Positions 140 through 20,901 of a stretch of 43,791 bases of DNA are shown piece after piece. Position numbers and translations under genes: made by a program. The notes beneath the pieces were generated by a model. The model saw only the letters and a list, made by a program, of their open reading frames with translations, was not told the origin of the DNA and made no database searches. Source of the stretch: Psammoneis japonica (Eukaryota); contig QPGO01000071.1 in assembly GCA_008632985.1 (NCBI GenBank), positions 359,516 to 403,306 on the forward strand. The letters are read 5' to 3'. The stretch's first letter is position 1; every line of letters begins with the position of its first letter.

Positions 140-2030
140 ATGTATCGAGTCGCTCTGGGGTCTATAAACTCGAGGCGAGCTCACCTTGTCTCAAGACAAG
201 GTAGGTTAGCCTTGGCGGCAGCGTCCGCGACCGTTCTGCACGTGCGCTTCTCGTCCGACAGTAGCACAAAGACGACTCGTTTGGAAGCAAATAAGGAACC
301 CGAAGAAAATAATAACAAAAAGGGATCCACATCGTTGGATCTTACGAAGGAATTGGAACGCGCCAAGAGTGATTTTGAGGGTTATCTGCAAACATGGGGT
401 GTGTTTTCGGATGGTGACGGCGATGAACAGAAACAATCCGGCAAAGAATCAGAAAAGAGGACCGATGATGATTCGTTAGATGATTTAAAGGTTTCGTTGA
501 CGGATCGACTTGAGCGACTCTTTTCGGATCACAAGCAACAAGAGCAAGATGGTGAACATGAAGAAAAGGTCAATCCTACAGCTGCCGAGAAGGCCGACTT
601 TCTCACGAGCATGGTCAAGGACGTTTCTTCCGTTCTGTTTACCCGAAGCAATGAACGAAAAGAAAAGGCTGTTCAGAATCTCTTGGAAACCGCTCATCAA
701 ACAATTCAAACTGGAGATACGCACAAGGAAGGGAAAAATCTATTGGATATTTTAAATTTGCTTTCAAGCAGCCTCAGTCAAGCGCACGACATGTTGCAGA
801 AGAATTTCGGTCACATTGATCTTTCAGAAGTATCGTTGAATGCTCTGTATTACTATGTCGAAAAGGAAGACGAAAGAAAGAACCCAAGCTGGAAACGGAG
901 GAAACACCGCTTTCATCCTGGAATAGATTACGATAGAGTGCTCGATCTGAATGATGCTCTTTATCTTGCCGACCTTGCGTACTTGGATAGTGTCGAGGAA
1001 ATCAAAGAAGGACTGGACGATTACAAAGCGCCCGTTGAAATGATTTATTGTGACACGGAAAGTTTTCCTGGGCGACCAAGTCACTTTATATTGTTGAAAA
1101 AGGACCAGAGTGTCTTGAGCTCCAATCTTGAAGTTATAATGGTGGTCCGAGGTAGCAAAACTATCCCTGACATTATCACGGACTGTCTGCTAGACGCGGT
1201 GGATTATCAGGATGGAAAAGGGCACGCCGGTATTCTCGAGTCGGGTAGGTATCTTGTAAACAAGTATCTACCTCTGCTTCAAACACTCCGAAAGGGCGCG
1301 AAGAAGCGCAAGGTAAAACTGACTCTGATTGGTCACTCCCTCGGAGCCGGGGCAGCTTCAATTGCTGGCATGGAGTTTCAACAGGTGCCTGAGATAGGCG
1401 TAGAAGTAATCGGTTTTGGGTGCCCGGCATTGCTGTCAAAAGAGCTCTCGGAAAGTACAAGCTCGTACATTACAACAGTAATCAATGATTCTGATTTAAG
1501 TGAGTGCATTCAGTGGAGGAGATTTGCTCATGTTGATGGAAAATGGAGCATGTTCTAACCTCGTCAATTTCTTTCTCAAAGTACCACGCACAAGCGGTGC
1601 GACCGTGGCAAACGCACTCCTTGATATCATGGAGTATGATTGGACCGACAAGGCCCGCGCCGACACGGAACATGCTTTACAAGAACTCCAGCGTGTGGCG
1701 CCCAGCATCCTATCCGATGATGCCCGCGAGACGATGCTCTCCACGGTTGATGCGTCCATTGAACAATTCTTAAAGCCATCCATCAAGGAACGCACCACTA
1801 AACGAATGGCCCCGGTGCTGTATCCACCGGGTACTTGCATTCATTTTTATCACGACGGACAGGGAATCAGCGCAAGCAAAGCCCCTTGCACGTTCTTCAA
1901 TGAAATCGACATTACCAGACGAATGGTGGACGATCATGTCATCGAGAGCGGCTACAAACAGGTCTTTCTTGATCTAATGCGAATTCACAAACGCGACGTG
2001 AACTTTAGATTTGATGATGTCAAAAGATAA
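140..2030 (+). CDS. Class 3 (fungal-type) lipase / alpha-beta hydrolase with long acidic N-terminal region and possible mitochondrial presequence; 2 exons (140-1499, 1582-2030)
   Basis: Motifs VVRGS..IPDIITD, GKGHAGIL and nucleophile elbow LIGHSLGAG. Intron 1500-1581 (GTGAGT...TTCTAAC branch...AAG) joins the ORFs into VINDSDLIPR, the typical D-x-[VI]-P-R motif. C-terminal LYPPG and MVDDH motifs. Confidence 0.9.
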
Positions 2031-2094: not shown

Positions 2095-4339
2095 TCACAG
2101 ACGTGGGAAAGTGATTTGATGTATCGATCCTGCCCATGGTGGCGTGGGATCTTGACCGACACTTGTATTGCCGCATTTGAACCACAACCCAAATCTTTCT
2201 GGACATCGATACACAGCATCCCCTTCGTCTACTCTGCACGACTCTGGCTTCTCCATCTCAAACGCGTCTGTAGTCGTACTTGAAAGTTCACAGTATGGCA
2301 ACATGGTAGGATTTGTTCCAACGCTAGCGAGCTGCTTACATCCAACCATCCTTCCATTCAGGAGGGACCACATTCCAAAACATGGGCGGCTGTCTCTAGT
2401 GGCAAAAGGGGATACGACGACGCTCCCAGAAGGATCTAGTGCAGCTCCTGTGCAGGAAGTGCACATTGTTAGACTGTACGATGAAACTTCGGGTTGCATT
2501 TGTTGTCGTAAGGAAGATTCAGCCCAAGAGCTATCCTTCGATCCAATTTTCCGAATGTCGTAAAGACGTAACCCCCCGAACTGGTGTCTGCATAGAAAGG
2601 TATGGTCATCGTCAGGGCGAGACAGCATGTTTGTCACGCCACCCAAAATGTTGTTTGTGATTCCGGGCGTTCCGTGCTTCTTTTTCTTCCTTCTGTCAGG
2701 CTTCCTACCAAGAATTGCAGCACACGTCGTCCTCTGTGCACGAGTATCTACTATGGACGCTTGCCCATTTTGATGTCCGTAAAATACTGTTTTGTTTGAA
2801 GGACAGCTCAGCGAGTCTTCCACGCACAACACATCCGACTGAGGAAAATCGACGAAATCGCATTCCTTGAATCCGTCCATCAACTGACTCATGAATATTG
2901 GCGAGAGTCTCTGGTTGTGCTGCCGCTTCTTCGGTGCGAATGAAACCGGATAATCATCTTACGATTCAAATTAAAAGTGATGCGAGGCATACAATCAAAA
3001 AGATAAGCCTTATGTCGCTTCGGTATATGATCATGTACCGGAATAAACTTACTATTGCCTTCGTTGTGATAACTCCAACAGAAATCATTCACATCGCATG
3101 GCAGATCAACAGCAAATGTGTCGTCTTTCGAGAAAACGTAGAACCTTGAATGTACAAAGAAATTGCTTGTCGTGATTCCCGCAAAGAAGAAACTGTTGTT
3201 GGACATTGATTTGTCTTTACGAGCTAGAAATCGGATCGAATCAAAATCACTGACACAGCTGCGACGATCGCCACTTTTCGATCTGACGTGTTAAGAACAT
3301 AAAAGTCAAAGGCAGCTTCAGTCTACAGAGTCATTTCAAGGCATTCCTTGATGACAAGCACCCATGCATCAGTCCTCACCTTGTTGTCGGGAGCACCGTT
3401 TCCGCTGAATAAAAGAGCGAATGATGGTTGGTTGAAAACGGCGAATCTGGAATGGAATGCGGAGTTTGTTGTACATCCCAAAGATTTCGACGAGGATAGT
3501 CCTCCGAGAACCGTAGCATGCATCCGCCATCGACCAGCGTTACAAACAATGGCATCTTGCTACCCGATCCAGATGGGTCTACCGCCCTTGCCACGTCAAA
3601 TGTTCGTTCGGTAGGCAATAGAACGGATTTGCATGTCAAGTCCCAATGCTCTTGCGACCAGCTAGAGAGCACAAGTATGAATAGTGAGAAAGAAGAAAGA
3701 AAATGAAAAAGAAAAGAGTGAGACTTTAACCGACTCCACGTCAGAAACATAGTTAGCAACAAGTTTGAATTACGCTAAGCTCCACAGCCCAGAGCATCTT
3801 ACGTACCGGTACTCTTCCGCGTTTGTTCCTTCAAATATTTGACAATAGGGCGTCAGCATGGATTGCCATTTGTTGTTTCTTTTCACGCAAGACGGAATTA
3901 CTTTGGAACAATGCATCAAGTGCTTATAGGAACACCACGACCGAAGTTTGACATTCCTAGACACCGTCGTTGGGCAGAATTGAGATGCACAAAGGTTGAA
4001 TGGAATCGACCTTGATGTGTCAAAAACATGGTTTTGATGGAGCCACAGTGACTGCGTTCGCTTGGATCCTCTAAAGTTTCTTGCTTGTTGAGAGTCATCT
4101 TTGCCTTTTGTGTCCAGCGAACCTTTGGGAAAATATGTTTTACGAGCCGGATCGTAGACGTAATCACCCAACACCCGAGGTGGATCCTTTCTGCTCTCCT
4201 TTTGCTCATCGTTCTTCAATTTTTCGTCGCTTTTCTTCCTTCGTTGTCTTTTCAGTTGCTCTTCGACATCGTGAAAGGAGCTGGCATTCTCGTTCTGCGA
4301 GGCGTTCTTGTGTCGATGCCGTTTATTTCGCCTCGCCAT
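2095..4339 (-). CDS. DCAF4/WDR21-like WD40 protein (putative DDB1-CUL4 substrate receptor), about 635 aa; exons 4339-3807, 3661-3380, 3282-3053, 2957-2095
   Basis: N-terminal GDYVYDPARKTYF resembles the DCAF4 GFYYDPEKxRYF motif. WD-like segments SDVLCV, VFYGHQNGQASIVDTR and LRLYDIR. Three GT-AG introns (3662-3806, 3283-3379, 2958-3052) give a consistent phase and 1908 nt total. Lys/Arg-rich NLS-like N-terminus. Confidence 0.7.
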
Positions 4340-4565
4340 GGTGCAACAACATGTCAGGCATTTTTGTTCGTTAGTTCGTTGTTCCATAACGCGTCTGTTC
4401 TCTGTCCCTGTTTTTTGGCGGGAAAAGTGCCTGGTCGTCACCCGGAAAAATGTTAGATCACGCCTCTGCAACATCATCATCAACCATGAAGAGCAGGAAA
4501 AGAGCGTCGCAATAGGCTGTGGTGTTGTTCAGGTCGTACCGGTTTTGTATCGAGAGAAATTGAGC

Positions 4566-5645
4566 ATGTCTTGCAATACTTTCATACATCGGTTAGGTTG
4601 TAACGTGATTACACGTGGTACGCTACTAGAGCACATCATTCGAAAGCACCATCTTTTGCCGGCGGTGCTGTCAGGACAACGACTGTTTTATTCTTCGAAA
4701 GCACCCTCAGATGACAATGAAAAAGAGGAAACAAAAGTCAACAAAGAAACATGGTCAACTGCATGGGTCCCCCCTAATCGCCCTTTGTCGGGTGATCTGG
4801 GAGAGTCGTCTCACACGTACGATACGACTGCCGAGGAATCAACAAAAGTGGAGTCGGATGAAGACGAAGAATTAAGGCAGCTCTTAGAGGAGGACGAAGA
4901 GCTACGGCGTCTTTTGGAAGAGGAAGAATCGTTCATGGAAGATGAAAACGAAAGCGAAAGTGAAGAAGAAAATGAGGATGATGATACAGTCGTAGACTGG
5001 TTGCAGACTCGTCGTTCCAAACTAAAGGGACAAATGTTGGGTACCGCGTCACAAGACCAACTCGATGTTATCAAACACACGCTATTGTCGCGAAATGAAA
5101 TCATATCTCTTCTGGAAAGGATGGGCGGACAACATATTGTAGAGATGAATCAGTATCAACAACACATGGGTGCCATGATTTTGACGACTTGCCCTTCTCC
5201 AATGCACATCTCAACCATTGCGGATACTATAGTCGAGAACCTTAAGAAACGAGAATTGGCAGATATGGGGGTTGTGGGTGCCCAGTTTGGATCAGAAGGA
5301 TCGGTATCAAAGCAAGAAACTTGGAGAATTGTAGATTGCTCCAATTTTGTCGTGCATCTCATGACAGAATCAACCAGACAACACCTGCAACTGGAAAAGT
5401 TGTGGACGCAAGAGCAAGGGGATGACTTGCGAAAAATCAGTCTAACGGACGAAGACGCTATGGATGATTATGTGGCTGACAATCCAATTCCCGATGACTA
5501 CTTCAGTTCTCTTGAAAGTGATGCGCAATGGACAACGGAAGCTATAACGAAAAGCTTGCGGAGAAAGAGATGGGACGAACCCACCAAGTCAAGGAACAAG
5601 CAGTCGAAACGGAGTGGTCGGAAAATGCCGAGACGTAATCGTTAA
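4566..5645 (+). CDS. rsfS: Organellar (probably mitochondrial) ribosome silencing factor RsfS/Iojap/MALSU1 family protein
   Basis: C-terminal domain with WRIVDCSNFVVHLMTESTRQHLQLEKLW (RsfS signature W..VD....VVH.......R..Y.LE.LW). Presequence-like N-terminus (..QRLFYSS) followed by an acidic linker. ATG at 4566 lies divergent from the DCAF4-like gene. Confidence 0.85.
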   Translation: MSCNTFIHRLGCNVITRGTLLEHIIRKHHLLPAVLSGQRLFYSSKAPSDDNEKEETKVNKETWSTAWVPPNRPLSGDLGESSHTYDTTAEESTKVESDEDEELRQLLEEDEELRRLLEEEESFMEDENESESEEENEDDDTVVDWLQTRRSKLKGQMLGTASQDQLDVIKHTLLSRNEIISLLERMGGQHIVEMNQYQQHMGAMILTTCPSPMHISTIADTIVENLKKRELADMGVVGAQFGSEGSVSKQETWRIVDCSNFVVHLMTESTRQHLQLEKLWTQEQGDDLRKISLTDEDAMDDYVADNPIPDDYFSSLESDAQWTTEAITKSLRRKRWDEPTKSRNKQSKRSGRKMPRRNR

Positions 5646-7937: not shown

Positions 7938-9095
7938 TTACCAGAAGTTCTCCATCCCAATGCTATTGAGAAGCTCCCGTCGCTCGTCCGACAAGACTTT
8001 CCGTCTCATTTTCTGAACCCTTACCCATTTACCAAGCTTTGGGTTTTCATCAAAATGCTTTGGGACATTGCAATGGCCGTTCTGAAGCTTGTACTGCTTC
8101 AGTTGCTCAAACATGCTCTCCCATGATTCCTGGACACGCCAAATGAATCCTACAGCGTCGAGGTGTTCGATTCTGTCGGCGGCGAGCTTATCAGACTTTT
8201 TGAGCGTTCTTTGCTTTTGAACCCCTATCAAAATGACAATCGAAGGAAGCAAATGTGAGTGTATATGAACGAATGAAAAATATCAATATGACCAAAGACA
8301 ACACGTACAGTTTCCTAGCTTGGGTATCTGTTTGTAATCCTGTGGGACAACACAATGGCCATGTTTTTGCTTATACTGAAGCAACCTTTCATACATTACA
8401 TCCCATGTTTCTCGCTTGTAAGGCTGAGAATAGGGTGCAGGTTTTTCTTCGTCTTCACCAGCAGGATCTTCGTCTGCATCTTCAGCTTCGGCAGCAGGAG
8501 GTACTATAGCCACACCATTCCGTTTTGCTTCTTCTCGCTCAGCAGCTTCTCGGTTAAGATCGTTTGCAGTCGCTTGTAGTAATGAAAGCTCGCCCGAAGT
8601 TCTCGGCTGTTGATTAAGAGAGGCCAACGCCATTGCTTCCTCTTGGAGCAGCACCGCAGCACCAGAGGGATGAGGATTCAAGTACTGTGGTATACCCGCA
8701 GAAACAGGATACAACAGAACGGGATGTGGAACAGGAGCTAGTGCAATAGAGTGCAAAGGAATGCCAAGTGTGTTGAGGGGCAATGACGCAGAAGCCATGT
8801 AACGGTTGTTCCGTTCGCGTTGTTGTTGTAGCAGCTGACTTCTCCGCTGTCTCAACTGGTGAAGTGATAAGAGCTGCTGATTCTCTCGACCAGGGGAAGT
8901 AAACGATGCCAACGGGTCTACAAAATGGCTTCGATCCTGCACTCCGGGCGACGTTAATCCGGAGTACTCCGTCAAATTTCGCCTTTGAATCGGGGCAATT
9001 GCATTTCCCGAAGGCTGAACCTTTGGCGAATCTTCACTTTTGCGGTGTGTTGATGACATGTTGCGGGAGTATTCTTCTCCTCGGTGGACTAGCAT
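7938..9095 (-). CDS. Helicase-associated (HA) domain protein with two HA repeats and a Gln-rich low-complexity N-terminus; exons 9095-8309, 8224-7938 (alternative start 9059)
   Basis: WDVMYERLLQYKQKHGHCVVPQDY...PKLGNWVQKQR...RIEHLDAVGFIW and WESMFEQLKQYKLQNGHCNVP...PKLGKWVRVQ...ERRELLNSIG are textbook HA repeats. Intron 8225-8308 (GTACGT...TAG) restores LGNWV. Confidence 0.9.
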
Positions 9096-9699
9096 TGCAA
9101 GTGTACGTTGTTTCTCTGAAGTTTCGTCGTTTCTCGGTCTTTGTCTTTGACCTTTAACTTCGTGACAGCAGCAACAATGAGGCCTCTCAAACAATTCAGT
9201 AGGGCCCTAGAGCCTCTTCTTTAGCGCGTTGTTTGTGGCAACTTCCGTTCTTTTGTGTCGAGATTGTCAGCCGAAAAGGGCTTTCTCATAAATAAAAATG
9301 TGCCACACGAATATCCGCTTTGTCGGTGTTCATTATCAAATTAAACAGATACGTTTAGAAGAGACGTGTCATATTCACGACTACGTACTATTAACGAAGA
9401 AGTTGTACTGAAATCTGCCTGCGAAAATGAGGGAAGATTGTCTTTCAATAGCCTTCCCAATGCAATTACTTAACGAGAAAAGCCTTGACAAATGAACATA
9501 AGGACATTTGATCTTGATGATTTCTGTATGTTTATCAACTCATTCTTGTAACGGCCTCTTCGCAAAAAAAGGCTATTTCCAGTTCACAACGCAGACGCGA
9601 GGCCAATTCTGGCCGCCACACCCTCTCTAGCTAGAGCTCCCTCACTCGACATGATGGCATTTCGTCGCGCCAAGTATTTTGTGATGTGGCTTCGACTGC

Positions 9700-11526: not shown

Positions 11527-12246
11527 ATGGTGGAGAACAAGGCATCCCTTTTAGGTGCACCAAAGAACGACGGAGGTAGCTTGGGCGAAACGCAGGGCAC
11601 AATCATGGCAGAAGCGACTGCAGACGCGCCTGCAAGCAATCACGGTGACCCCTTGACGCTTGATGGGGTGGAGACTACAGCCAGCGACGATGATAATGCT
11701 GAGGCTCACACAGATGACCGCTTAATGGTGGGTGCTGGCGTAGCTGGCGGTGTTTGCGGTCTCTTGCTGGGCGGTCCCTTCCTTGCGACACTTGCAGGAT
11801 TCGGCGCAGCATGGGCTACTTCGAAGCAAGGTGCCGCTGGTGACGTCGCACGAGCCATGGGGGAGGTTGCTCTGACGGCTCGTAGCAAGGCTCAAGAACT
11901 GGACGCTAAGCATAAGTTCACTGAAACGACAAAGGAAGCTGCATCACAAGCCGTGGGTCGGTTGCAAGAGTATGAACGCCAACACGATGTTGTGGCAAAG
12001 ACGAAGGAATTCTTCGTTTTCTCGTGGACCAAAGTTTCCGATTTCAATCGCGAGCATCGCGTCGTGCAGCGGGCGTTTGAAACGGTGGGTCAAGCTATTA
12101 CGTTTGTGGTGAACAAAATCATTGATGCAGCAACATCAAGTAGTGAGGAAAACAACGAAGATTCACCGGAGCCGGAGTACACGTTTGTTCCCAGTGCACC
12201 CCCTGAATCGGAAGACAAGACCAAGTGCGATGCAAAGCCGTTCTAA
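11527..12246 (+). CDS. Hypothetical protein with Gly-rich hydrophobic hairpin (glycine-zipper-like) and amphipathic helical C-terminus
   Basis: 239-aa single-exon ORF with normal composition. GAGVAGGVCGLLLGGPFLATLAGFGAAWA hydrophobic segment, followed by GDVARAMGEVA. Confidence 0.8.
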   Translation: MVENKASLLGAPKNDGGSLGETQGTIMAEATADAPASNHGDPLTLDGVETTASDDDNAEAHTDDRLMVGAGVAGGVCGLLLGGPFLATLAGFGAAWATSKQGAAGDVARAMGEVALTARSKAQELDAKHKFTETTKEAASQAVGRLQEYERQHDVVAKTKEFFVFSWTKVSDFNREHRVVQRAFETVGQAITFVVNKIIDAATSSSEENNEDSPEPEYTFVPSAPPESEDKTKCDAKPF

Positions 12247-12281: not shown

Positions 12282-14957
12282 CTAGAGTTTTCGAATTACG
12301 CTCAACCCATCTCTCATGGGGAGAACCATCACTTCCACACGGTCGTCCTTGACAATTGCAGAATTGAAGCGATGCATCTTCATTGCGAGCTTCCGTGCTC
12401 GTCGTCCCTTTTTCTTTTGCTGTTCACTCTCTCCATCAACCGCCGGCTCCTTACCCCCATTGTTGGCCTGCAAGACGAGTCCCTTCCACAACACATTATC
12501 TACAACAATCAAGCCTCCCTTTTTCAGGACAAAATCATTTGACACGCAAGCCTCTACGTAATCCAACAATCTCGTCTTGTCAGCATCGACAAACACCATA
12601 TCAAATGGTTCCGGTGGATTCTCCATTTCAATGCGTTCTGTTACCATTTCCTCAATTGTAGCCAAAGCATCAGTCACTCGAAGGACCTCACAGCCTACGA
12701 GATCTTGGTAAGTTAGAAAGATAGAATCTTCTTCGACTTGAGGGACGCCTAGACTCGGAGAACAAAGACAAGATGGAACGTGAGTTTGTAGAAAACGCAC
12801 TGCTACAGCATACACATGTAGCTAGTACACATACCTTGTCCGTCCTTACTTCGTAAGCTGCAAGCGGCTTTTGAAGCGTCTTGTCCCGTCGCGGTTCCCA
12901 AATCCGACATGACTTGTAAGTGAGCAACAGCCAGATTGATGGCACGCCCATCTCGTTCCATGGTTTGTACAAACGGACCAGCTTGCCGTCCACCAGCCAC
13001 AGCAGAACTACTAGCGGAAGCTACAGAAGCAGCGCCTTCGACCAAGCATGCAGTGGCATATCCTGTAAACGTCCCGATTTCTAAAATTCGACCATGTGTC
13101 GTCATGCTAGCTAGCAGCTTTAAAAATTGCCCTTGTGCTGCACCCGAAACCATGTGAGAGCCCGTGGGTAAATAGGCTCGCGTATTGTGTTCCATCTCCT
13201 CATAAAACGATGGCGTCGGTGTCGAATGCCCTGAACTGTAGTCTTCCAGTGTATGGTATTCCACCAACTTGTCTTCGGCAGATGCATCTTGTGGGTTTTG
13301 TTTTTGTTCGAGAACGCCTCGCTTGGACGACATGAAATTGTTCCTTCCCATGATGCGCTGCTTACAAGCATCAGAGCAAGTCCCATGATATGCGGTGCGA
13401 CAAGTTTCACATTGGATCATGCGCAAGTGACAGCTTGGGTTTTGACAGTTCGAAACCAAAGATGTTTTTGCGCCGCATGTGTGGCACTCACCCAATTCAT
13501 CCTTGGTGATTTGTCGAGACAAGCGTCCATCAAAGACAAAGTTGGTACCCTTGAACAAACTTTCGTCATTTTGCTTTTCTTGAGAAATCGTCCGGTCGTA
13601 TGCAATGATTCCTCCAGCGAGCCTGTTCACATTTGTGAAATTCATTTCTTGCTTGAGGTACGCACCAACCTTGACACAACGGATCCCACCCGTACAGTAG
13701 GTATAAATGGGAGCATCTTTGGGTGCATCCTTTAATCTCTCCTCAAGCACTTGCCACGAATCCCGAAAGTTCTCTGTATCCAATGGCTCTGCACCGACAA
13801 AGGTTCCCACCGAACTCTCGTACAAGTTGCGACAATCCAACAATATCGATTCGTCGTCTTGGTTCTTGAGAGATTCGTGCCATTCCAGGGGTGGCATGTC
13901 GTATCCTGCATCCGACCAATCCAATGCCTTGGGTAGTCCATCCGCAACAATTTGATTTCGAACACGCACGTGCAAATTGGTAAAGGGCGCTTCTTCTTGT
14001 ACAGAAAGCGGTTCGGGATCTACATTGATTCCGTTTTCCATCTTGCTTCCCAATTCTGGTATTTCTTCTTGACAATAGCGTATAAATTCCGGCAAAACAT
14101 TGGTGGGAACACTCATTTGAGCGTTAATGCCTTCAGTGGGTGACACATAGATGCGTCCCAGGGCGGAAAAGGGTTTGAATTTGCCCTTGAGAGAGTGTGC
14201 AAAATCGTGTGGTTTGGGAATCTCGCCAAAGGCATAAAAGGAAATCATGGTGATAGTGGATGAGTCGGATGGATTTGCCATGTTTTGAATGTAATCAGGA
14301 ACTTGTTCTGGTGGTGGGGCATTGGGGTCTTTGGATATGAACAGGTTTAGAGTTGGTCGTTTCAATTCTTGGTCATGTTGTTGATCATCAAAATAGTTGA
14401 GAGCCTTGAGAAAGGTATCCGTAACATCCTCATCGGTTTCAACTGTCCATGTTTCGTTCATATTACTCCCCGATGGTAAGGACGCCGACATGCAATAGGT
14501 TCCTTTTCGTAAACACCGAAAAAATGCGTGTAATTCTTGTTTCAGATCGGCAATTGTCTGTGTCTTGACCTGGCGATCGCTTAGAATGGGAACAAATAGC
14601 CGCCCCCGTCGTTCTCGTCCATTCAGCTTCAACTCCTTGCGCAACTCGGGACATACTGACACTCTCACGGCCACCAATTCTTGTTGTTGCTGTTGCACAA
14701 CCTGTTTCAGTTCCAAGTGACGCTGTACTACTGCAAGTGTCGATTTTTCCCGTGCCTGCCTTTTTGCTCGTGCGTTCTGTATTTCTTCTTGTACCAAATC
14801 TTGATTGGATTTTAAAAACGACGAAAACAGTGTGATCGTCTTCGAAAGGTCGTGATGAAGACAAGATTCGACTCGAGCGCGAAACAAAGCCTGAAACAAA
14901 CATTGTTCTTCGAAAAAGTACAGCTCCAACAAGTAATCGTATCCAGAATAGCGTCAT
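12282..14957 (-). CDS. trhO: Fusion protein: putative plastid-targeting leader + PB1-like region + TrhO/YceA (UPF0176) rhodanese-type tRNA U34 hydroxylase + C-terminal class I O-methyltransferase (Methyltransf_3, CCoAOMT/TrmR-like); intron 12749-12834; apparent +1 indel near 14850
   Basis: TrhO motifs: SFYAF, GRIYVSPTEGINAQ, LLDCRNLYESSVGTF, YCTGGIRC, LAGGIIAY, FKGTNFVFDGR and the Cys-rich CHTC..NCQNPSC..QCETC..CSDAC tail. O-MT motifs: QGQFLKLL, ILEIGTFTGYA, FDMVFVDADK, GGLIVVDNVLWKG, LPMRDGL. The leader MTLFWIRLLVGAVL...VSG-FVSRSSR is in another frame (ORF starting 14957). Confidence 0.88.
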
Positions 14958-15234
14958 GACGACGACGACGAGCTTTCTCTATCAGCCTCTTTTATATCAG
15001 TAACGTTTTAATCAGGCGAGCTTAGGGAAGCTTATGAGTAACGTGAATTCTTTTGTGGTTTCTGTTGTGTGTCCAAGCCGAAAGCTTTCACTGATAAAGA
15101 AAAGAATCCGAATTTTCGTTTTTAACGGCGTTGGAGGGAGTCTCGCGCAAAAAAAGATCGTGATTCCCTGTTGTGGTGAGAGACCGAGAAAATTTCTCCA
15201 GAACTGCTGACCAAGGGAATCTGGATGATTACTT

Positions 15235-15540
15235 CTAACTAACTAACTAACTAACTATCTATCTACCACTGCTCTCTACTACCCTAGCTAGAGTAGAGAG
15301 AGGTCACAGTAGAGTAGAGCTAGCCACTCTCTCTAGCTAGAGCTAGCTCTACTGGCCACTCTCTCTGCTCTAGAGAGAGCAGAGAGTGGGGGCTTCTTGC
15401 CCTGCCTGTCCGCCCGGCCAGTCGGAACCGCAGAAGAGCTGTGCCGGCATGGCACGGCAGGCCTCTCTAGAGAGTAGAGCCAGTTGGTCACCAAATCTTT
15501 TACTACCCAACATGTGTTCAAGATGCTGTTCCTCTAGTTT
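15235..15540. repeat. (CTAA)5/(CTAT)2 microsatellite followed by a CTAG/AGAG/CTCT-rich low-complexity patch with an 11-bp perfect hairpin (15361-15386)
   Basis: Read directly: ctaactaactaactaactaactatctatcta; repeated CTAGAG, GTAGAG and CTCTAG; stem CTCTCTGCTCT-agag-AGAGCAGAGAG. Confidence 0.8.
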
Positions 15541-15646
15541 TCAATGTTCCAATGAGCTCGTTTCGAGAATGAACCATCAATGATCTTTTCCAGCCAATGC
15601 ATCTTCCTCCTTGCATCCACAGCATCCCTGAAGAAACAAGACAAGT

Positions 15647-16330
15647 CTAACCACGGTTGCGCCTGCGCTTCCAGATGTCAGCTGCAGCATGAGAAAGCTC
15701 AAACGATTCCACAAACAAAACAACGCTGTCAAAACGATGGCGTCCACCAAAAAACTTCCTCGCTCGGAAATTGCGTTTCGAACTCAAACAAGACATCGCG
15801 CTTGCTTGCACAGTGCGACAACACATGTGCACTGCCAGTGGCGTTTCCGGAATTGCTGCAAATCATGAGATCATGGGCATTGCAAGACACCACATCACCA
15901 ACCAATTCATGGCAATCGCGTTCATGCTGTTGCGGTGCTTCCCTGTGAGACCGCCAGAACAGGTCAACAACTGGGGGGGCTGTGGCTTTTCCTTCCAAGT
16001 CATGATGATCAAAGAGTCTTGCTGACCACCGCTGTTGCCATGCTTTTCAGATGCAATGGCTTCAACCGCCTTGACCACAAGAAATTGACGGCATTCATTT
16101 GCTGCCAGTTCGGCGAAAACCTCGAAAGAACCACCATGCTCTTGCATTGCTGGCGAATGCCCAGCAAGTGAGGGGCGCTCTTCTTGCCAAATGGCTGCTG
16201 GAGAACAAGATGAGTGTGCCAGCAAAGTGTGAGCAAAAGCTGAGTCACCGGCACAGCTGCTGGCACGCAGCAGCTTGTCAGATTGTTTCCAAGCTGACAA
16301 ACAAGGCTTCAGCCACTCCATGAACAATGG
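15647..16330 (-). pseudogene. Degenerate paralog of the GRDP-like (DUF1399-type) domain of the gene at 23555-25182
   Basis: Fragments ECRQFLVVKAVEAIASEKHG, WKEKPQP, VDLFWRSHREAPQQHERDCHELVGD, CASKRDVLFEFETQF and FGGRH align with EYRQFLLVKAVETIASCKYG, WKEKCQP, VDLFWHAHMQAPQQYAIDCHCLIGD, YASKRDAVFAFEKQF and FGGRRH. Several frameshifts. Aligned Tyr residues are Cys or His. Confidence 0.88.
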
Positions 16331-16511: not shown

Positions 16512-19321
16512 ACTCAGAGAGTTGCGTCTCCAAGATGAAAATGGCGTTTCACTGACTTTGCTTTCCATTTTTGAAGTTCACAATGTTGTTTTTATTTTCA
16601 ACAACATTTTGTGGAGTTTTGGCGAGTTTTAAGTTTTTGCACCAGCCCTCATTTGTTCCGTGCACAAGTCAAAAAATGATCGCGACTCCGTTTTGTGGTG
16701 TGGAAAACAACGATGAGCTCAACAACAACCGCTTTTAGCAGGTGCCGCAGAGAGGAAGGAATCCAATGTTTGAATGCTGCAGTTTGTTTTCACAGCAGAA
16801 TTGGGACCCACCAGGCAGGACATTGATGGACCAGCTGCACTCTCATGGTTCGGCCACTTGAGTTGTTCACCTCCTCATGGGAAGGGGCCGGAGAGGTGTC
16901 TTGCAGTCACGTGAAAGGTGCATTTCAACCAAGTCTAATGTGCCATTCAGAGCCTCTCAGAAGACATTGTTTTTTGGAATTTTGAAAAAATGGGAGCTTG
17001 TTGTTGGTTGGCGAAAGGAGAAGCAAATGGAGAGTGATTTTTCAAACCGGCTGGATGGGTCTGATTTTCATGGACCAAGTCCAATGCATGAAGATGGACA
17101 AGGGATTGATGGTTTTGAGCTTGTGTTGATGTCATGACGCAGAGAACACTGATCATGAAGTTGAGACCAAATTTGAGAAAAAGACCTTGTGACATGCCAC
17201 ACGACTGCATGAAAGCAAAAACATTTCCAAAATGGTGATTTTGTTGCCATTCACTCATGTTGTGCAGCAGAGCAAAAGAGATGTTTTGGAGGGGAGTCAA
17301 TCTCGTTTTCAAGACAGAAGGCATCAAAGGTCACTTCCTGAAAAAGTGTTCTTTTTGACAACAATGCATGTGGGGAGTTGTGAGAATTGCTCGTGAATGC
17401 AGTGAAGTGTGATGATGTGATGCCAAGTTCCCAATCGTAATTTTGAAAGGCTGTGCGGCGGCATTGTGATGACCCACTCACAGATGAACAAAAATTGCCT
17501 TTGTTTTGACATGGCTCATTGCAACTTGTCATTGTGACAACCAAAAGAGCATTTCATTCATTCTTTTCCTTTGACAAAAATGTTGCAAATCACAGGAAGA
17601 GTTTTCTGATTGGCCAAAACCATTTTTAACCAGAATGCTCAATGACAAAAAAATGCTCAAGCCCCATGTGATGATCACTTGAGCCCCTAAAACTGACACC
17701 ACCACCCACCTGTGCATGTGTTGTGATTGTGATCAACACAGTCCCTGCCACTGTGTTCACACTGGCAAAAGACAAAACAGCGTCAGGCAACAGGATGCCT
17801 GCAGCCAATGGCACAAACATTGAAACCCTCATCACTTTGTCAAAAGCACAGCTCAAAAATGTGGCACATGGAAAAAGAGCTTTGTGCTTGCACGCCATGA
17901 GCATGCTTTGCAGTTTGATCCCCCACCAGTTTGTTCTGTCATGCTTTTCAGTGCCTCACTGTGATTCGTGACATCTGTGTGTGGTTTTAAATTGCACAGA
18001 AGGTTCCACTGCTCTGCATTGCCTGAAACTCCTTTATGATGTGGCCCACTTCCATGCGCACACTCCATGCTTGTGTTCCTTCAGCACCTTGTTCAAATCA
18101 TCAGCTTCTCCAATGCATGCCAAACTTTGATGACAAGCACAAGGCAGAACACAGCAACAACAAAACTCTTTTGCAGGGGTGCAGCTGGTGCATCTGGGGA
18201 GCAGGTGATGTGCTTTTCACAGTGCTCCTGTTCACTTGTTTCAAGATCATGCACATGACCCAGTTTGAGTCATCTCCAGTGATTTTGCTCACACCAGTTT
18301 GCAGCATGGCCCCTGCTTTCACTTGCAAAGCCAGCCCCGCCAGCGTGGAAATGAGCTCTCTTGTTGTTTTTCTTCATGAGCAAAAACAGCTCAGCAGCAG
18401 CTTTGCTTTGAGCAAGAGGTCTGCTTCTGGGAACTGCTGTCTGGCTTTGTTGGGTTGGTTGTGACTGCAGCTTTTCAAAGAGCAAGCTGGTGTGTCTGGG
18501 TTGCCACCTGGTGCTGCCCCCCAAGCTGCAGCTGCTGTCCACACAGCACCACAGCACAAACTGGGTGAAGGAAAGTCCTTGAGAAACTGGTCATTTCATG
18601 TCAAAATTGCACCTGGACTTTGCTTCTCTCAACTGCTTGGATGTCAAAATTGAGCCCTTTGCAAAACAAACAACCAGAGCTTGTTCCAGTGAGTGGACCA
18701 AGCCAGGGTTTCTCTTCTGACCCAGCAAGGCTCACCTCTTTGCTTTTCATTTCACATTTGGCTTTCAGCACAAGAATCTTTGTGGCTTGACTTCACCTCT
18801 TTTGACACTGTGTGACTTGCGTGGCTCTCAAACTTGACCTTCCTTCCACAAAACTTGCAGTTCATGCCAACCATGGAGCTGTCTGCGAATGCATTTCTTG
18901 CCCCCCCCTGACTTCAAGCTGCTCAGGTTGCACCAAATTGAAGGAATGTTCCAGACCTCCAGGAGGCACAATGCTGCAGCTGGCACTCGCCTGTTTTGGG
19001 CCCTTCTTTCTGAGTTTGTCAACAGCCAACCAGAGTGCCAGCAACACTCAACATTTGCCACACCACAGCAACATGCCTGTCACCTTGCTCTGCTGCCCCC
19101 CTCCTTGCCCACGTCATTCCATCACCTTTTTCCATCAATCGTGTGCCCACCCACCACCTTTCCTCTTTCTGTGGCCGCCGAAGTCTGCGCGCAACTTGTC
19201 AATGCTTCAATCACGAGCTCCACTGTTTGTAAATCTATCACTTTCTTTTTGCGCGCACCATGCCGCTCCTGCCTCCTGCGCTGCCAGCCTGCCAGCTCCA
19301 CATTCTGTTTTCGACCCAACC

Positions 19322-20901
19322 ATGACAAACACCGCCGCTGCAACGACCCCGCCGCCGCCATCCACCACACCGGCTTCTCCCGACGGTCCACCATTGGAAA
19401 TTGGTGATGTCTGTATGGTCATATGGAGAGACGGTCAAGAAGAATTGCTCGCCAGCATTGTCGAACGCCGATCCTTACGAAAAAACAAAAAGGAACTCTC
19501 CGACGAAACAGCGCAAGAGGTGGAATACTATGTTCACTATGTGCATCACGATCGACGTCTCGATGATTGGATTACTCTTGATAAGTTTCGATTGGAAACG
19601 CTTCGCCGAAAATCAGAACAGCCTGCTCCACCGACCAAGTCGTCGGGTCCTGGCAAACGTGGCACGAGACGAAGCAACAGCAGCGATAGCATCGGATCGA
19701 TATCACGTAAGCAAGCCAAACTCAGTCCGGAATCAGAAGATGGCGAGACGAATGCGCTTTCTATTGACACGTCGGCGGACTTTTTCTATCACGGCGGCAA
19801 TTGGCACGGCAGCAGCATGACCAATGATCCGACTCTGCAACAATTGGAAAAGGAGCACGAGGAAATCACCCGAGTCAAGAATATTCCTCGCATCGTTATG
19901 GGTTCGTACGAAGTGGAAGCGTGGTACTTTTCACCCTATCCCGCCGAATTTGCCACGGGCAAACGCTTGTACGTTTGTGACTATTGTTTGAAGTACATGC
20001 GTCACTCCAAAACGTACAAGCACCACATTGCGACGTGCCCCTGCCGTTGTCCACCCGGTAAAGAAATTTACCGCGAAGACACCACGTCGGTGTATGAAGT
20101 CAATGGCAAGGATCACCCTGTCTATTGTCAAAACTTGTGTCTGCTGGCCAAACTATTTTTGGATCACAAGACACTCTATTACGATGTGGATCCGTTCTAT
20201 TTTTACATTGTGACTCAAACCAACGAGTTGGGTGCTCATATTGTGGGATACTTTTCCAAAGAGAAAGTGAGTCGTTGTATGGAGGTGATTTGTTGTTATC
20301 GACATGTCTCTAGTGAATACTTATACTCATCTTATGCCTTTCCGTGTCGTTCTCAATTCTGCTCAGGTCTCTGCTGAGGACTACAATTTGGCATGCATCT
20401 TGACCTTTCCCCAGTACCAGAAGCTTGGCTATGGCAAATTCATCATCAGTCTGTCGTATGAATTGTCCAAGCGCCAAAACAAGGCGGGAAGTCCCGAAAA
20501 ACCGCTGAGTGATTTGGGCAAAATTTCCTATCGCAGCTACTGGACCCACGTCTTGTTGCATTTGCTGCACAAGGAAAATCTCGAAACGATTTCCGTCAAG
20601 GAAATATCTCAGAAAACAGCCATTAAACCAGAAGACATTATTAGCACGCTGCAGTCTCTAAACATGATCCAGTGCTGGAAGGGACAGCATGTGATTTATG
20701 TCAAGCAAGATATTTTGCAAGACTACATGAAGCAAAAGTGAGTAACAACACGAGGTGTCTCTTACGCAATACCAATCATCGAAACTTGACTCACGCCATT
20801 CCGTTTTGTTTTCTAATCATTGCAGCAAACGTATTCGCTTGTGTAATCCAAAATATCTCAAGTGGGAGCCGAATGGCGGCAAAATCAAGAGTGATTCTTG
20901 A
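19322..20901 (+). CDS. MYST-family histone acetyltransferase (Tip60/Esa1/MOF-like) with Tudor-knot chromo-barrel; exons 19322-20266, 20367-20737, 20826-20901
   Basis: [16 protein letters not shown] (Tudor-knot); [18 protein letters not shown]2HC zinc finger, [58 protein letters not shown]. Two GTGAGT...CAG introns keep the phase. Confidence 0.95.

Follow-up and report, generated by a model that had tools for sequence, protein, structure and literature searches.

A diatom nuclear gene fusing TrhO to a Methyltransf_3 O-methyltransferase: a candidate bifunctional enzyme for wobble-uridine hydroxylation and methylation in organellar tRNA

Introduction

Can a single nuclear gene of a diatom supply both steps by which the wobble uridine (U34) of an organellar transfer RNA (tRNA) would become 5-methoxyuridine (mo5U)? 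We examined this question for a gene on the minus strand of a 43,791-nucleotide stretch of Psammoneis japonica DNA (assembly GCA_008632985.1, contig QPGO01000071.1, positions 359,516 to 403,306), here called the window, in whose own numbering all coordinates are given. A reading made from the letters alone (the sequence-only reading) had proposed, at 12282-14957, a TrhO hydroxylase fused to a TrmR-like O-methyltransferase, and with it a one-protein mo5U pathway in a plastid. Both activities are established in bacteria: TrhO makes 5-hydroxyuridine at position 34 (ho5U34) with O2, and TrmR, a Methyltransf_3 enzyme, methylates ho5U34 (PMC6599085, PMC6158493).

The argument from fusion has itself been published. 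A yceA-trmR fusion was noted in Phytophthora sojae, P. ramorum and Phaeodactylum tricornutum (Sakai et al. 2019, Nat Commun 10:2858, PMC6599085) and, together with linkage to cmoA in cyanobacteria, it led to yceA as the second U34 hydroxylase, TrhO; the eukaryotic trhO homologues were said to suggest modification of the 5-oxyuridine (xo5U) type in eukaryotes (PMC6599085). The fusion in the window has the same architecture and invites the same one-pathway inference, and it may be the same gene or an orthologue. The Rosetta-stone argument of the sequence-only reading is sound, but it is not new. The passages of Sakai et al. 2019 that concern the fusion only mention it, term its hosts 'bacterial species' and contain no gene model, targeting, distribution or assay; nor do they hold a red-algal distribution, motifs of the Phe type, a PB1-like domain or an affinity of the methyltransferase to proteins other than TrmR. 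The Joint Genome Institute (JGI) likewise names homologues 'predicted sulfurtransferase/predicted O-methyltransferase YrrM', and our literature searches returned no paper testing a eukaryotic fusion protein. What the present analysis may add lies beyond the published argument: the distribution across the red lineage, the candidate Phe-type signals, a methyltransferase apparently of the 3CBG type with a parallel in SAR11 bacteria, and a predicted PB1-like domain.

The gene is read most economically as one whose product hydroxylates tRNA U34 and then O-methylates it. We assign a probability of about 0.5 to the whole proposal, namely that the product is an organellar, probably plastid, bifunctional enzyme that takes U34 through ho5U to mo5U.

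Gene structure

In this diatom nuclear gene, TrhO and a Methyltransf_3 O-methyltransferase are fused. A single open frame of 709 codons extends over 14932-12803 of the minus strand, and the junction between the two enzymes sits within it. As this one open reading frame (ORF) contains TrhO together with the start of Methyltransf_3, the junction is independent of any gene model, which the sequence-only reading had stated correctly; the domain limits it gave (14255-13365 for TrhO and 13250-12282 for the methyltransferase) are also about right when set against the Pfam spans. It had further described one uninterrupted frame, which is true of the junction but not of the gene as far as 12282. The body frame ends with a stop at 12805-12803, and positions 100-204 of the Methyltransf_3 profile are matched in another frame, by the minus-strand ORF 12815-12282 (Pfam, E 2.4e-22). 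Because the two Methyltransf_3 halves are in different frames, an intron is needed between them, and we predict one of 86 nucleotides (nt) in phase 1 (12834-12749, minus strand; GTATGT...TCTAG) that rejoins the halves. Behind the donor GTATGT at 12834, ten in-phase acceptors leave the frame open; the acceptor ending at 12749, with exon 2 from 12748, gives the best fit in length and sequence to ten diatom homologues. Around this predicted intron the spliced product would read ...SKDGQ/G/VPQVEEDSIFLTYQD..., and the encoded protein would have about 850 residues. The body is open over some 800 codons, keeps every catalytic motif and is 58-63% identical to its best homologues, the nearest of the matches listed being 63% identical to the window ORF.

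The TrhO half

The first enzyme in the body frame has the layout of a bacterial TrhO. An N-terminal acylphosphatase-like domain, UPF0176_N (13949-14251, minus strand; aa 228-328; PF17773, E 2.5e-14), contains the basic strand HVRVRNQIV and aligns, by way of the homologue P0003, with the solved TrhO 9j5o_A and with 4f67_A. It is followed by a Rhodanese domain (13598-13870, minus strand; aa 355-445; PF00581, E 2.7e-07), which carries the active-site loop CTGGIR (C413-R418; 13679-13696, minus strand). This loop is identical to that of E. coli TrhO, in which C200, T201, G203 and R205 are essential (PMC6599085). The Cys-rich C-terminal domain, Rhodanese_C (13361-13552, minus strand; aa 461-524), is matched over its entire profile (PF12368, positions 1-66 of 66, E 1.8e-18). 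The order UPF0176_N, Rhodanese, Rhodanese_C is therefore kept within a single ORF, and layout, loop and basic strand are shared with TrhO (YceA/YbfQ, UPF0176) of E. coli and B. subtilis and with the solved homologues 9j5o and 4f67. Unlike the bacterial proteins, the TrhO of the window lies between a PB1-like domain and a methyltransferase, in a predicted nuclear-encoded eukaryotic protein of about 850 residues.

Profile scores agree with this assignment, the equivalog model being matched near its threshold. Against the NCBIfam TrhO equivalog NF001133 the window ORF reached 171.7 bits, marginal to the cut-off of 170, with a red-algal homologue (P0156) above it at 185.3 bits and a diatom homologue (P0003) under it at 162.8 bits. 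The top solved match of the TrhO half of P0003 was 9j5o_A, labelled 'tRNA uridine(34) hydroxylase' (E 3.4e-28).

The methyltransferase half

The methyltransferase is split by the predicted intron into an exon-1 part (12835-13216, minus strand; PF01596, aa 573-627, profile positions 7-59 of 204, E 5e-07) and an exon-2 part that includes the stop codon (12282-12748, minus strand; PF01596, profile positions 100-204). The former contains the S-adenosylmethionine (SAM) motif I LEIGTFTGY, the acidic residue of strand beta-2 (TMERD) and a diatom-specific insert, and the latter contains the DADK and DN metal/catalytic motifs together with a conserved basic stretch, KKKGRRARKLAMKMHRFN. In an alignment of the methyltransferase domains of six fused proteins from five clades (A1), SAM motif I does not vary, and neither do the metal/catalytic residues D, D, K, D and N; the counterparts of these residues in TrmR are the metal ligands D133, D159 and N160, plus K136 (PMC6158493). 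The whole-domain match, the catalytic lysine and the metal ligands place the domain among the class I cation-dependent O-methyltransferases (3CBG/CCoAOMT type, PF01596). A complete TrhO module fused to Methyltransf_3, as originally claimed, is thus borne out by the Pfam domains and by intact catalytic, SAM-binding and metal-binding motifs.

The closer affinity of the domain is another matter. SAM motif I and the Asp/Asp/Asn metal site are common to the whole family and do not discriminate for TrmR. Searched against solved structures, the A1 profile scored best with 3CBG (148.4 bits), followed by 3TR6 (143.6) and 4YMG (141.2), whereas the TrmR entries 8K1F and 5ZW3 reached 111.6 bits (rank 12) and 97.8 bits (rank 38). 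The single sequence P0003 gave the same order (3cbg, E 4.4e-15; 5zw3, E 7.1e-09). NCBIfam returned no TrmR-named match at E <= 1 for five methyltransferase-bearing queries, a result that gives no test of TrmR orthology. The label 'TrmR-like' therefore holds at the level of the family (PF01596) but not below it, and the domain is, as judged from these scores, a Methyltransf_3 enzyme of the 3CBG kind and not a demonstrable TrmR orthologue.

With TrmR (YrrM of B. subtilis; 5ZW3/5ZW4, and 8K1F, 'tRNA 5-hydroxyuridine methyltransferase') the fused domain shares PF01596, the Asp/Asp/Asn site and the lysine of DADK, and like TrmR it is linked in the genome to a U34 hydroxylase, here by fusion to TrhO; it differs in that TrmR is not its nearest solved relative and in that it carries extra inserts. 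At beta-2 the window reads ERDGRA, and the TrmR positions were mapped through the beta-2 acidic residue only. So mapped, the position of TrmR Arg-86 is Arg in diatoms, Porphyridium, Cyanidiococcus and Vitrella; in 3CBG, Asp-Gln aligns with TrmR Glu-85 and Arg-86. The conserved basic stretch (R-K/R-N-R-R-A-R-K-L-A in diatoms) is located where a loop of TrmR becomes ordered on tRNA binding, an equivalence that is only positional, and it falls where TrmR has R178 and R181, a tentative correspondence. 3CBG, the best solved match both of the fused domain and of the trhO-linked methyltransferase of SAR11 described below, is a stand-alone protein without a known RNA substrate. We take it to be the Synechocystis enzyme SynOMT (slr0095), which acts on hydroxycinnamates in vitro; in the table of the Protein Data Bank (PDB) it is labelled 'O-methyltransferase' only.

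Bacterial relatives of the methyltransferase

A search for bacterial relatives of the fused methyltransferase domain confirmed 598 of 600 candidate stretches, and for the best 80 of these relatives we scanned 3.5-kb flanks. Seven of these 80 loci have a TrhO ORF in the flanks, and all seven are from Pelagibacteraceae (SAR11), where they make up every Pelagibacteraceae locus listed (L049, L052, L055, L059, L065, L073 and L077; about 3500-4950). In each (7/7 loci), trhO lies on the same strand directly downstream, its start coinciding with the end of the methyltransferase gene or falling no more than a few bases from it. The methyltransferase of the pair again scores best with 3CBG (155.6 bits; the TrmR entries reach 78.1 and 72.1). 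This adjacency independently ties a methyltransferase of this kind to trhO. Both systems couple a 3CBG-like methyltransferase with trhO, but in SAR11 there are two genes with the methyltransferase first, the reverse of the eukaryotic fusion order, and the SAR11 TrhO falls on the other side of the TrhO tree from the fused TrhO.

The link is not a general one. No TrhO was found near the other 73 of the best 80 loci, which argues against a general association of methyltransferase and TrhO, and of 30 bacterial genomes sampled from these loci, each holding a close methyltransferase relative, only 14 have a match to the TrhO N-domain, so that the subfamily as a whole is not bound to TrhO. The 16 genomes lacking a UPF0176_N match include Sorangium, Streptomyces, Mycolicibacterium and Alistipes, and some of the 16 are incomplete metagenome-assembled genomes (MAGs). 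TrhO is present in three of four cyanobacterial genomes, but on contigs other than that of the methyltransferase.

Distribution and origin of the fusion

In the first homologue search, 468 proteins matched at E <= 0.001. The best 120 of them measure 400-1117 residues, and those with names are diatoms, except for one eukprot entry labelled Alexandrium tamarense. Several MMETSP transcript ORFs of other diatoms that are marked 'complete' hold all four Pfam domains, so that in relatives the fusion is on one mRNA. Both queries of the ESM Atlas returned the diatom cluster only.

An exhaustive search of representatives gave 5768 matches at E <= 0.001, 431 of them at E <= 1e-30. When proteins were counted as fused on the basis of a TrhO span of more than 240 residues and a methyltransferase span of more than 180 residues (phmmer with three parts of P0003), 146 of the 267 gathered proteins carried both halves. 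A survey of the architecture across ochrophytes, as the sequence-only reading had suggested, finds it in diatoms, two Triparma species (bolidophytes), Ochromonadaceae sp. and Phaeothamnion confervicola, and extends it to Vitrella brassicaformis and to the red algae Chondrus, Gracilaria, Gracilariopsis, Agarophyton, Rhodosorus, Porphyridium, Pyropia and Cyanidiococcus. The fusion is conserved from Cyanidiales to diatoms, and every named carrier in the homologue searches has a red-type plastid. At least four further clades of fused proteins exist beyond the named carriers, including P0198/P0236, P0143/P0243, P0216/P0229 and P0266; P0216 and P0229, as well as P0243 and P0143, are Lys/Asn-rich and apparently come from AT-rich organisms. 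No match named Phaeodactylum was among the named matches of three homologue searches, though the fusion has been published there.

Quick unrooted IQ-TREE trees, thinly sampled and with support from the Shimodaira-Hasegawa-like approximate likelihood ratio test (SH-aLRT) only, fit one origin of the fusion before the diversification of red algae. In the methyltransferase tree (106 rows), the 26 eukaryotic fused rows lie in one clade with SH-aLRT 95 that also takes in one cyanobacterial MAG row; the side next to it holds cyanobacterial, actinobacterial and SAR11 rows, with Bacteroidota further off. The cyanobacterial MAG row, an O-methyltransferase from a Pseudanabaenaceae MAG (L041, 3264-4049, plus strand), sits inside the eukaryotic clade on a long branch of 0.73 and is 34% identical to the red-algal query; TrhO is on another contig of that genome, and the placement could be that of a true cyanobacterial sister or an artefact.

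The TrhO tree (64 rows) has a split of SH-aLRT 99 that separates five cyanobacterial, seven SAR11 and eight other bacterial rows from a side with 26 fused rows, 14 unfused rows and four Bacteroidota rows. A simple origin of both halves from the plastid ancestor is therefore not demonstrated. A cyanobacterial origin of the TrhO half was considered and is not supported by this tree, quick and unrooted and with 24 bacterial rows, and we claim no donor.

Targeting of the orthologues and the 5' end of the window gene

The compartment was approached through the N-termini of the orthologues, with motif rules that are crude stand-ins for ASAFind and SignalP. A Phe is required for import into cyanelles, probably into red-algal plastids, and into red-derived complex plastids (PMC2222254); the dependence on Phe in red-type plastids is also stated in PMC4329603, where the ASAFAP motif is described. 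The red-algal clade supplied 46 proteins, of which 29 begin with Met and have 20 or more residues ahead of the basic helix. In their first ten residues, 22 of these 29 show M-x(0-6)-F-[VIAL] (for example MSSAFVPLRVFFG and MKFAFAPPTLFFG), whereas 1000 shuffles gave 2.6 on average and never more than 8. F[VIAL]P is present in 17 of the 29 (shuffle mean 0.4, maximum 3). Two of the seven that miss the Phe motif (P0156 and P0296) have MAFAP or MAFVP behind a short upstream extension. Of the 120 proteins listed from the first search, 40 have complete N-termini, and in 16 of these 40 diatom sequences a hydrophobic run is followed within 14 residues by [AGSC]F, as in VAS|FQP, AIA|FSF and ASA|FQQ (500 shuffles: mean 6.0, maximum 14). 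In 12 of 13 supplementary files of the ASAFind paper, rhodanese, UPF0176, O-methyltransferase and sulfurtransferase are mentioned 0 times.

These motifs support plastid import of the orthologues, as far as sequence motifs can, and it is because the orthologues bear red-lineage plastid import signals that the plastid is the most likely compartment. Should the chemistry from U34 through ho5U34 to mo5U34 be right, we regard the plastid as its likely site. The earlier placement 'in a plastid' is thus favoured by orthologue import motifs and by the red-lineage distribution, but not by the window's own leader. P0216 has no N-terminal leader and the leader of P0243 is Arg-rich without acidic residues; if their gene models are right, these would not be plastid proteins.

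In the window itself, the first ATG downstream of upstream stops, the candidate start codon, is at 14955-14957 (minus strand), in a frame shifted by one base from that of the conserved body; no other ATG occurs between 15450 and 14957 on this strand, some 490 bases. In the body frame, TGA at 14956-14954 is a stop, and the first ATG in that frame comes only at about aa 150. Over the 5' coding region (14810-14954, minus strand), the putative presequence, two frames thus compete: the ATG frame, which reads MTLFWIRLLVGAVLF..VSG|FVSRSS.., and the +1 frame, which is that of the conserved body. Only the ATG frame contains ..VSG|FVS.., a candidate Phe-type cleavage site behind a putative signal peptide. 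The body frame is clearly conserved from SNQDLV (about 14806) onward in an alignment with ten diatom homologues. To join leader and body requires a 1-nt indel or a small GT..AG intron. In-phase GT..AG candidates of 31, 40, 46, 58, 82 and 91 nt with weak donors exist, and on our reading of the letters the frames would likewise be joined if the T5/A4 runs near 14815-14825 differed by a single base. An upstream signal-peptide exon was also considered and rejected: the ORFs opened by ATGs at 15450-15690 do not resemble one.

Proposed function and alternative explanations

We propose a single polypeptide in four parts, an N-terminal targeting region, a PB1-like domain, an O2-dependent TrhO and a cation-dependent class I O-methyltransferase. 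The TrhO half would hydroxylate C5 of the wobble uridine in organellar family-box tRNAs (anticodons U-purine-N) to give ho5U, and the methyltransferase half, with SAM and a metal held by Asp/Asp/Asn, would methylate the new 5-hydroxyl to give mo5U34. Fusion may allow the intermediate to pass between the active sites on the same bound tRNA, most likely in the plastid. The chemistry alone, from U34 to ho5U34 to mo5U34 on organellar tRNAs, we hold to be somewhat more likely than not. In its favour, mo5U has been reported in Synechocystis total RNA (PMC12860351), and Synechocystis is the genus to which we assign 3CBG, the best solved match of the methyltransferase half. A survey of coconut tRNA lists ho5U together with a plant TrhO homologue predicted to be chloroplastic (PMC10298058).

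Several observations weigh against the proposal. Both TrmR entries rank well below 3CBG, and most of the entries that outscore them with A1 are labelled small-molecule or putative O-methyltransferases. The position of TrmR Arg-86 is Met, Val, Tyr, Lys, Asn or Ile in fused proteins other than those named above. A TrhO N-domain accompanies the methyltransferase in fewer than half of the bacterial genomes (14/30), and the TrhO half does not group with the five cyanobacterial TrhOs, with four Bacteroidota on the eukaryote side instead. In the window itself, leader and body are in different frames; a codon-usage log-ratio, trained on the fusion gene and three Pfam-supported ORFs and picking the true frame in 86% of control windows, prefers the frame of the body to that of the ATG in most windows of 15 codons within 14942-14810. 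On the prevailing view, mitochondria and chloroplasts use unmodified U34 for four-way decoding (PMC11571807), our literature searches returned no report of xo5U in plastid or mitochondrial tRNA, red algae or diatoms, and the fusion is reported in Phytophthora (PMC6599085).

Alternatively, the methyltransferase might act on a small molecule of the catechol or hydroxycinnamate type, or on another RNA position, with the fusion serving co-regulation; the product of the TrhO half would then stay ho5U or go to another enzyme. The structures that outrank TrmR (3CBG, 3TR6, 4YMG/4QVK, 3R3H, 5LHM, 2HNK and 2AVD) all bear labels of O-methyltransferase or catechol type, no TrhO N-domain match was obtained in 16 of the 30 genomes that hold close methyltransferase relatives, and the Arg positions specific to TrmR are not uniformly kept. 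We nevertheless think a small-molecule or other RNA substrate quite improbable. A fusion to a tRNA hydroxylase has been conserved from Cyanidiales to diatoms, the 26 eukaryotic domains form, with one cyanobacterial MAG row, a single clade (SH-aLRT 95), and the SAR11 gene pair independently couples the same kind of methyltransferase to trhO. Moreover, the 5-hydroxyl of ho5U is phenol-like and stands beside a carbonyl, which is the substrate type of the family, and no genes of a small-molecule pathway are linked to the fusion gene.

The remaining alternatives concern where the enzyme works and whether this copy can tell us. With the same chemistry, the enzyme might be mitochondrial or dual-targeted rather than specific to the plastid. 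Phytophthora are organisms without plastids, and the fusions published from that genus argue that the enzyme can serve another compartment too. P. sojae and P. ramorum are the hosts concerned (Sakai et al. 2019, PMC6599085), and the same direction is indicated by three fused proteins with Arg-rich N-termini lacking acidic residues or with no leader (P0243, P0198 and P0216) and by the ambiguous leader frame of the window. Set against these are the Phe transit motif of red algae, found far above shuffled expectation, the signal-peptide-like run followed by [AGSC]F in diatom orthologues, and the red-type plastids of all named lineages, so that we judge a mitochondrial or dual location unlikely. 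The leader frame also raises the question of whether the 5' end is broken in the assembly, as a frameshifted allele, a pseudogene or an assembly indel, in which case the targeting of this copy would be unreadable. The out-of-frame ATG at 14957, the body-frame stop at 14956-14954 with no in-frame ATG until about aa 150, and the want of a convincing upstream exon would all be accounted for in this way. The other 800 or so codons are open, however, with 58-63% identity to the best homologues and all catalytic motifs kept, and several in-phase GT..AG candidates exist; a broken 5' end thus has, to our mind, a rather small chance of being right. The leader described at first, said to resemble a diatom signal peptide with an F-starting transit peptide behind it, is not established: the frame that encodes it is offset by one base from the body and disfavoured by the codon score.

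The bifunctional enzyme of U34 that we prefer would have consequences beyond this diatom. We suggest, with somewhat less conviction, that throughout the red lineage (red algae, diatoms and other ochrophytes, chromerids) plastid four-codon boxes are read with mo5U34 by means of this nuclear-encoded three-part enzyme with its methyltransferase half of the 3CBG type. If true, it would be the 3CBG type rather than Bacillus TrmR that in reality methylates ho5U34 in cyanobacteria, SAR11 and red plastids, and red-lineage plastids would depart from the decoding by bare U34 that textbooks assume for organelles. To our knowledge, no wobble modification of the xo5U type has been demonstrated in any eukaryote. 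The gene family would offer a direct handle on organellar wobble decoding in genetically tractable diatoms and red algae, and it may hint at what a large group of 'catechol-type' O-methyltransferases, structurally solved but of no known substrate, do in cyanobacteria and in the very abundant SAR11.

The N-terminal helix and the PB1-like domain

Upstream of TrhO, ORF residues 42-222 have no Pfam match, a Pfam PB1 match included. In alignment A2 they are 39-49% identical to the window in diatom and bolidophyte rows and 19-30% identical in red algae, and the PB1-like region can be aligned in red-algal, Phaeothamnion and other fused proteins. An AlphaFold2 model built from a 37-row alignment (mean predicted local distance difference test, pLDDT, 91.4; predicted template modelling score, pTM, 0.72) has a 39-residue helix followed by a beta-grasp domain. 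The helix corresponds to ORF aa 43-81 (14690-14806, minus strand), which in the alignment with ten homologues begins at the conserved SNQ[DE]LV and is helical over residues 2-40 of the model. The domain, a predicted PB1-like beta-grasp (ubiquitin-like) fold, spans ORF aa 83-207 (14312-14686, minus strand).

Compared with 48,161 chains by VIA-align, the model matched 83 of the 86 residues of 2g4s_A, the PB1 domain of NBR1, with Z 10.1 and a root mean square deviation of 2.2 Å; 11 chains had Z >= 8, and the top twelve rows were all PB1 domains. The top match by Foldseek was 6tgn (E 1.5e-3, TMt 0.78). We consider the assignment sound, with the qualification that it is of a model: TrhO would be preceded by a beta-grasp domain of PB1 topology. 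The fold of residues 83-207 matches that of the PB1 domains of NBR1, p62, MEK5 and Par6, but identity to them is only 8-19%, the domain here is part of an RNA-modifying enzyme, and a common fold shows no function, so that any PB1-like role is conjectural.

Surrounding DNA

The window has a G+C content of about 0.48 and no tRNA genes. ORFs for a MYST histone acetyltransferase, a class 3 lipase, RsfS and a protein with a helicase-associated (HA) domain give it the look of nuclear eukaryotic DNA. The acetyltransferase ORF (18812-20377, plus strand) has Tudor-knot and zf-MYST domains and ends within MOZ_SAS, probably continuing past an intron. The lipase ORF is at 140-1558 (plus strand) and the HA ORF at 8283-9194 (minus strand). 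RsfS, an iojap-type ribosomal silencing factor, is matched at aa 264-366 (E 1e-15) of a 445-codon ORF (4308-5645, plus strand) with a long N-terminal extension, which may be another nuclear gene for an organellar translation factor.

Upstream of the fusion gene, at about 15230-15400 and seen on the minus strand, there is a (TAGT/TTAG)n microsatellite, and the same interval has CT/AG-rich, partly palindromic DNA of low complexity (CTCTCTAGAGCAGAGAGAG...). On the other side, a 239-codon ORF (11527-12246, plus strand) is convergent with the fusion gene, its stop lying 35 bases from that of the latter; this ORF has no Pfam match and contains a Gly/Ala-rich hydrophobic stretch, VGAGVAGGVCGLLLGGPFLATLAGFGAAW.

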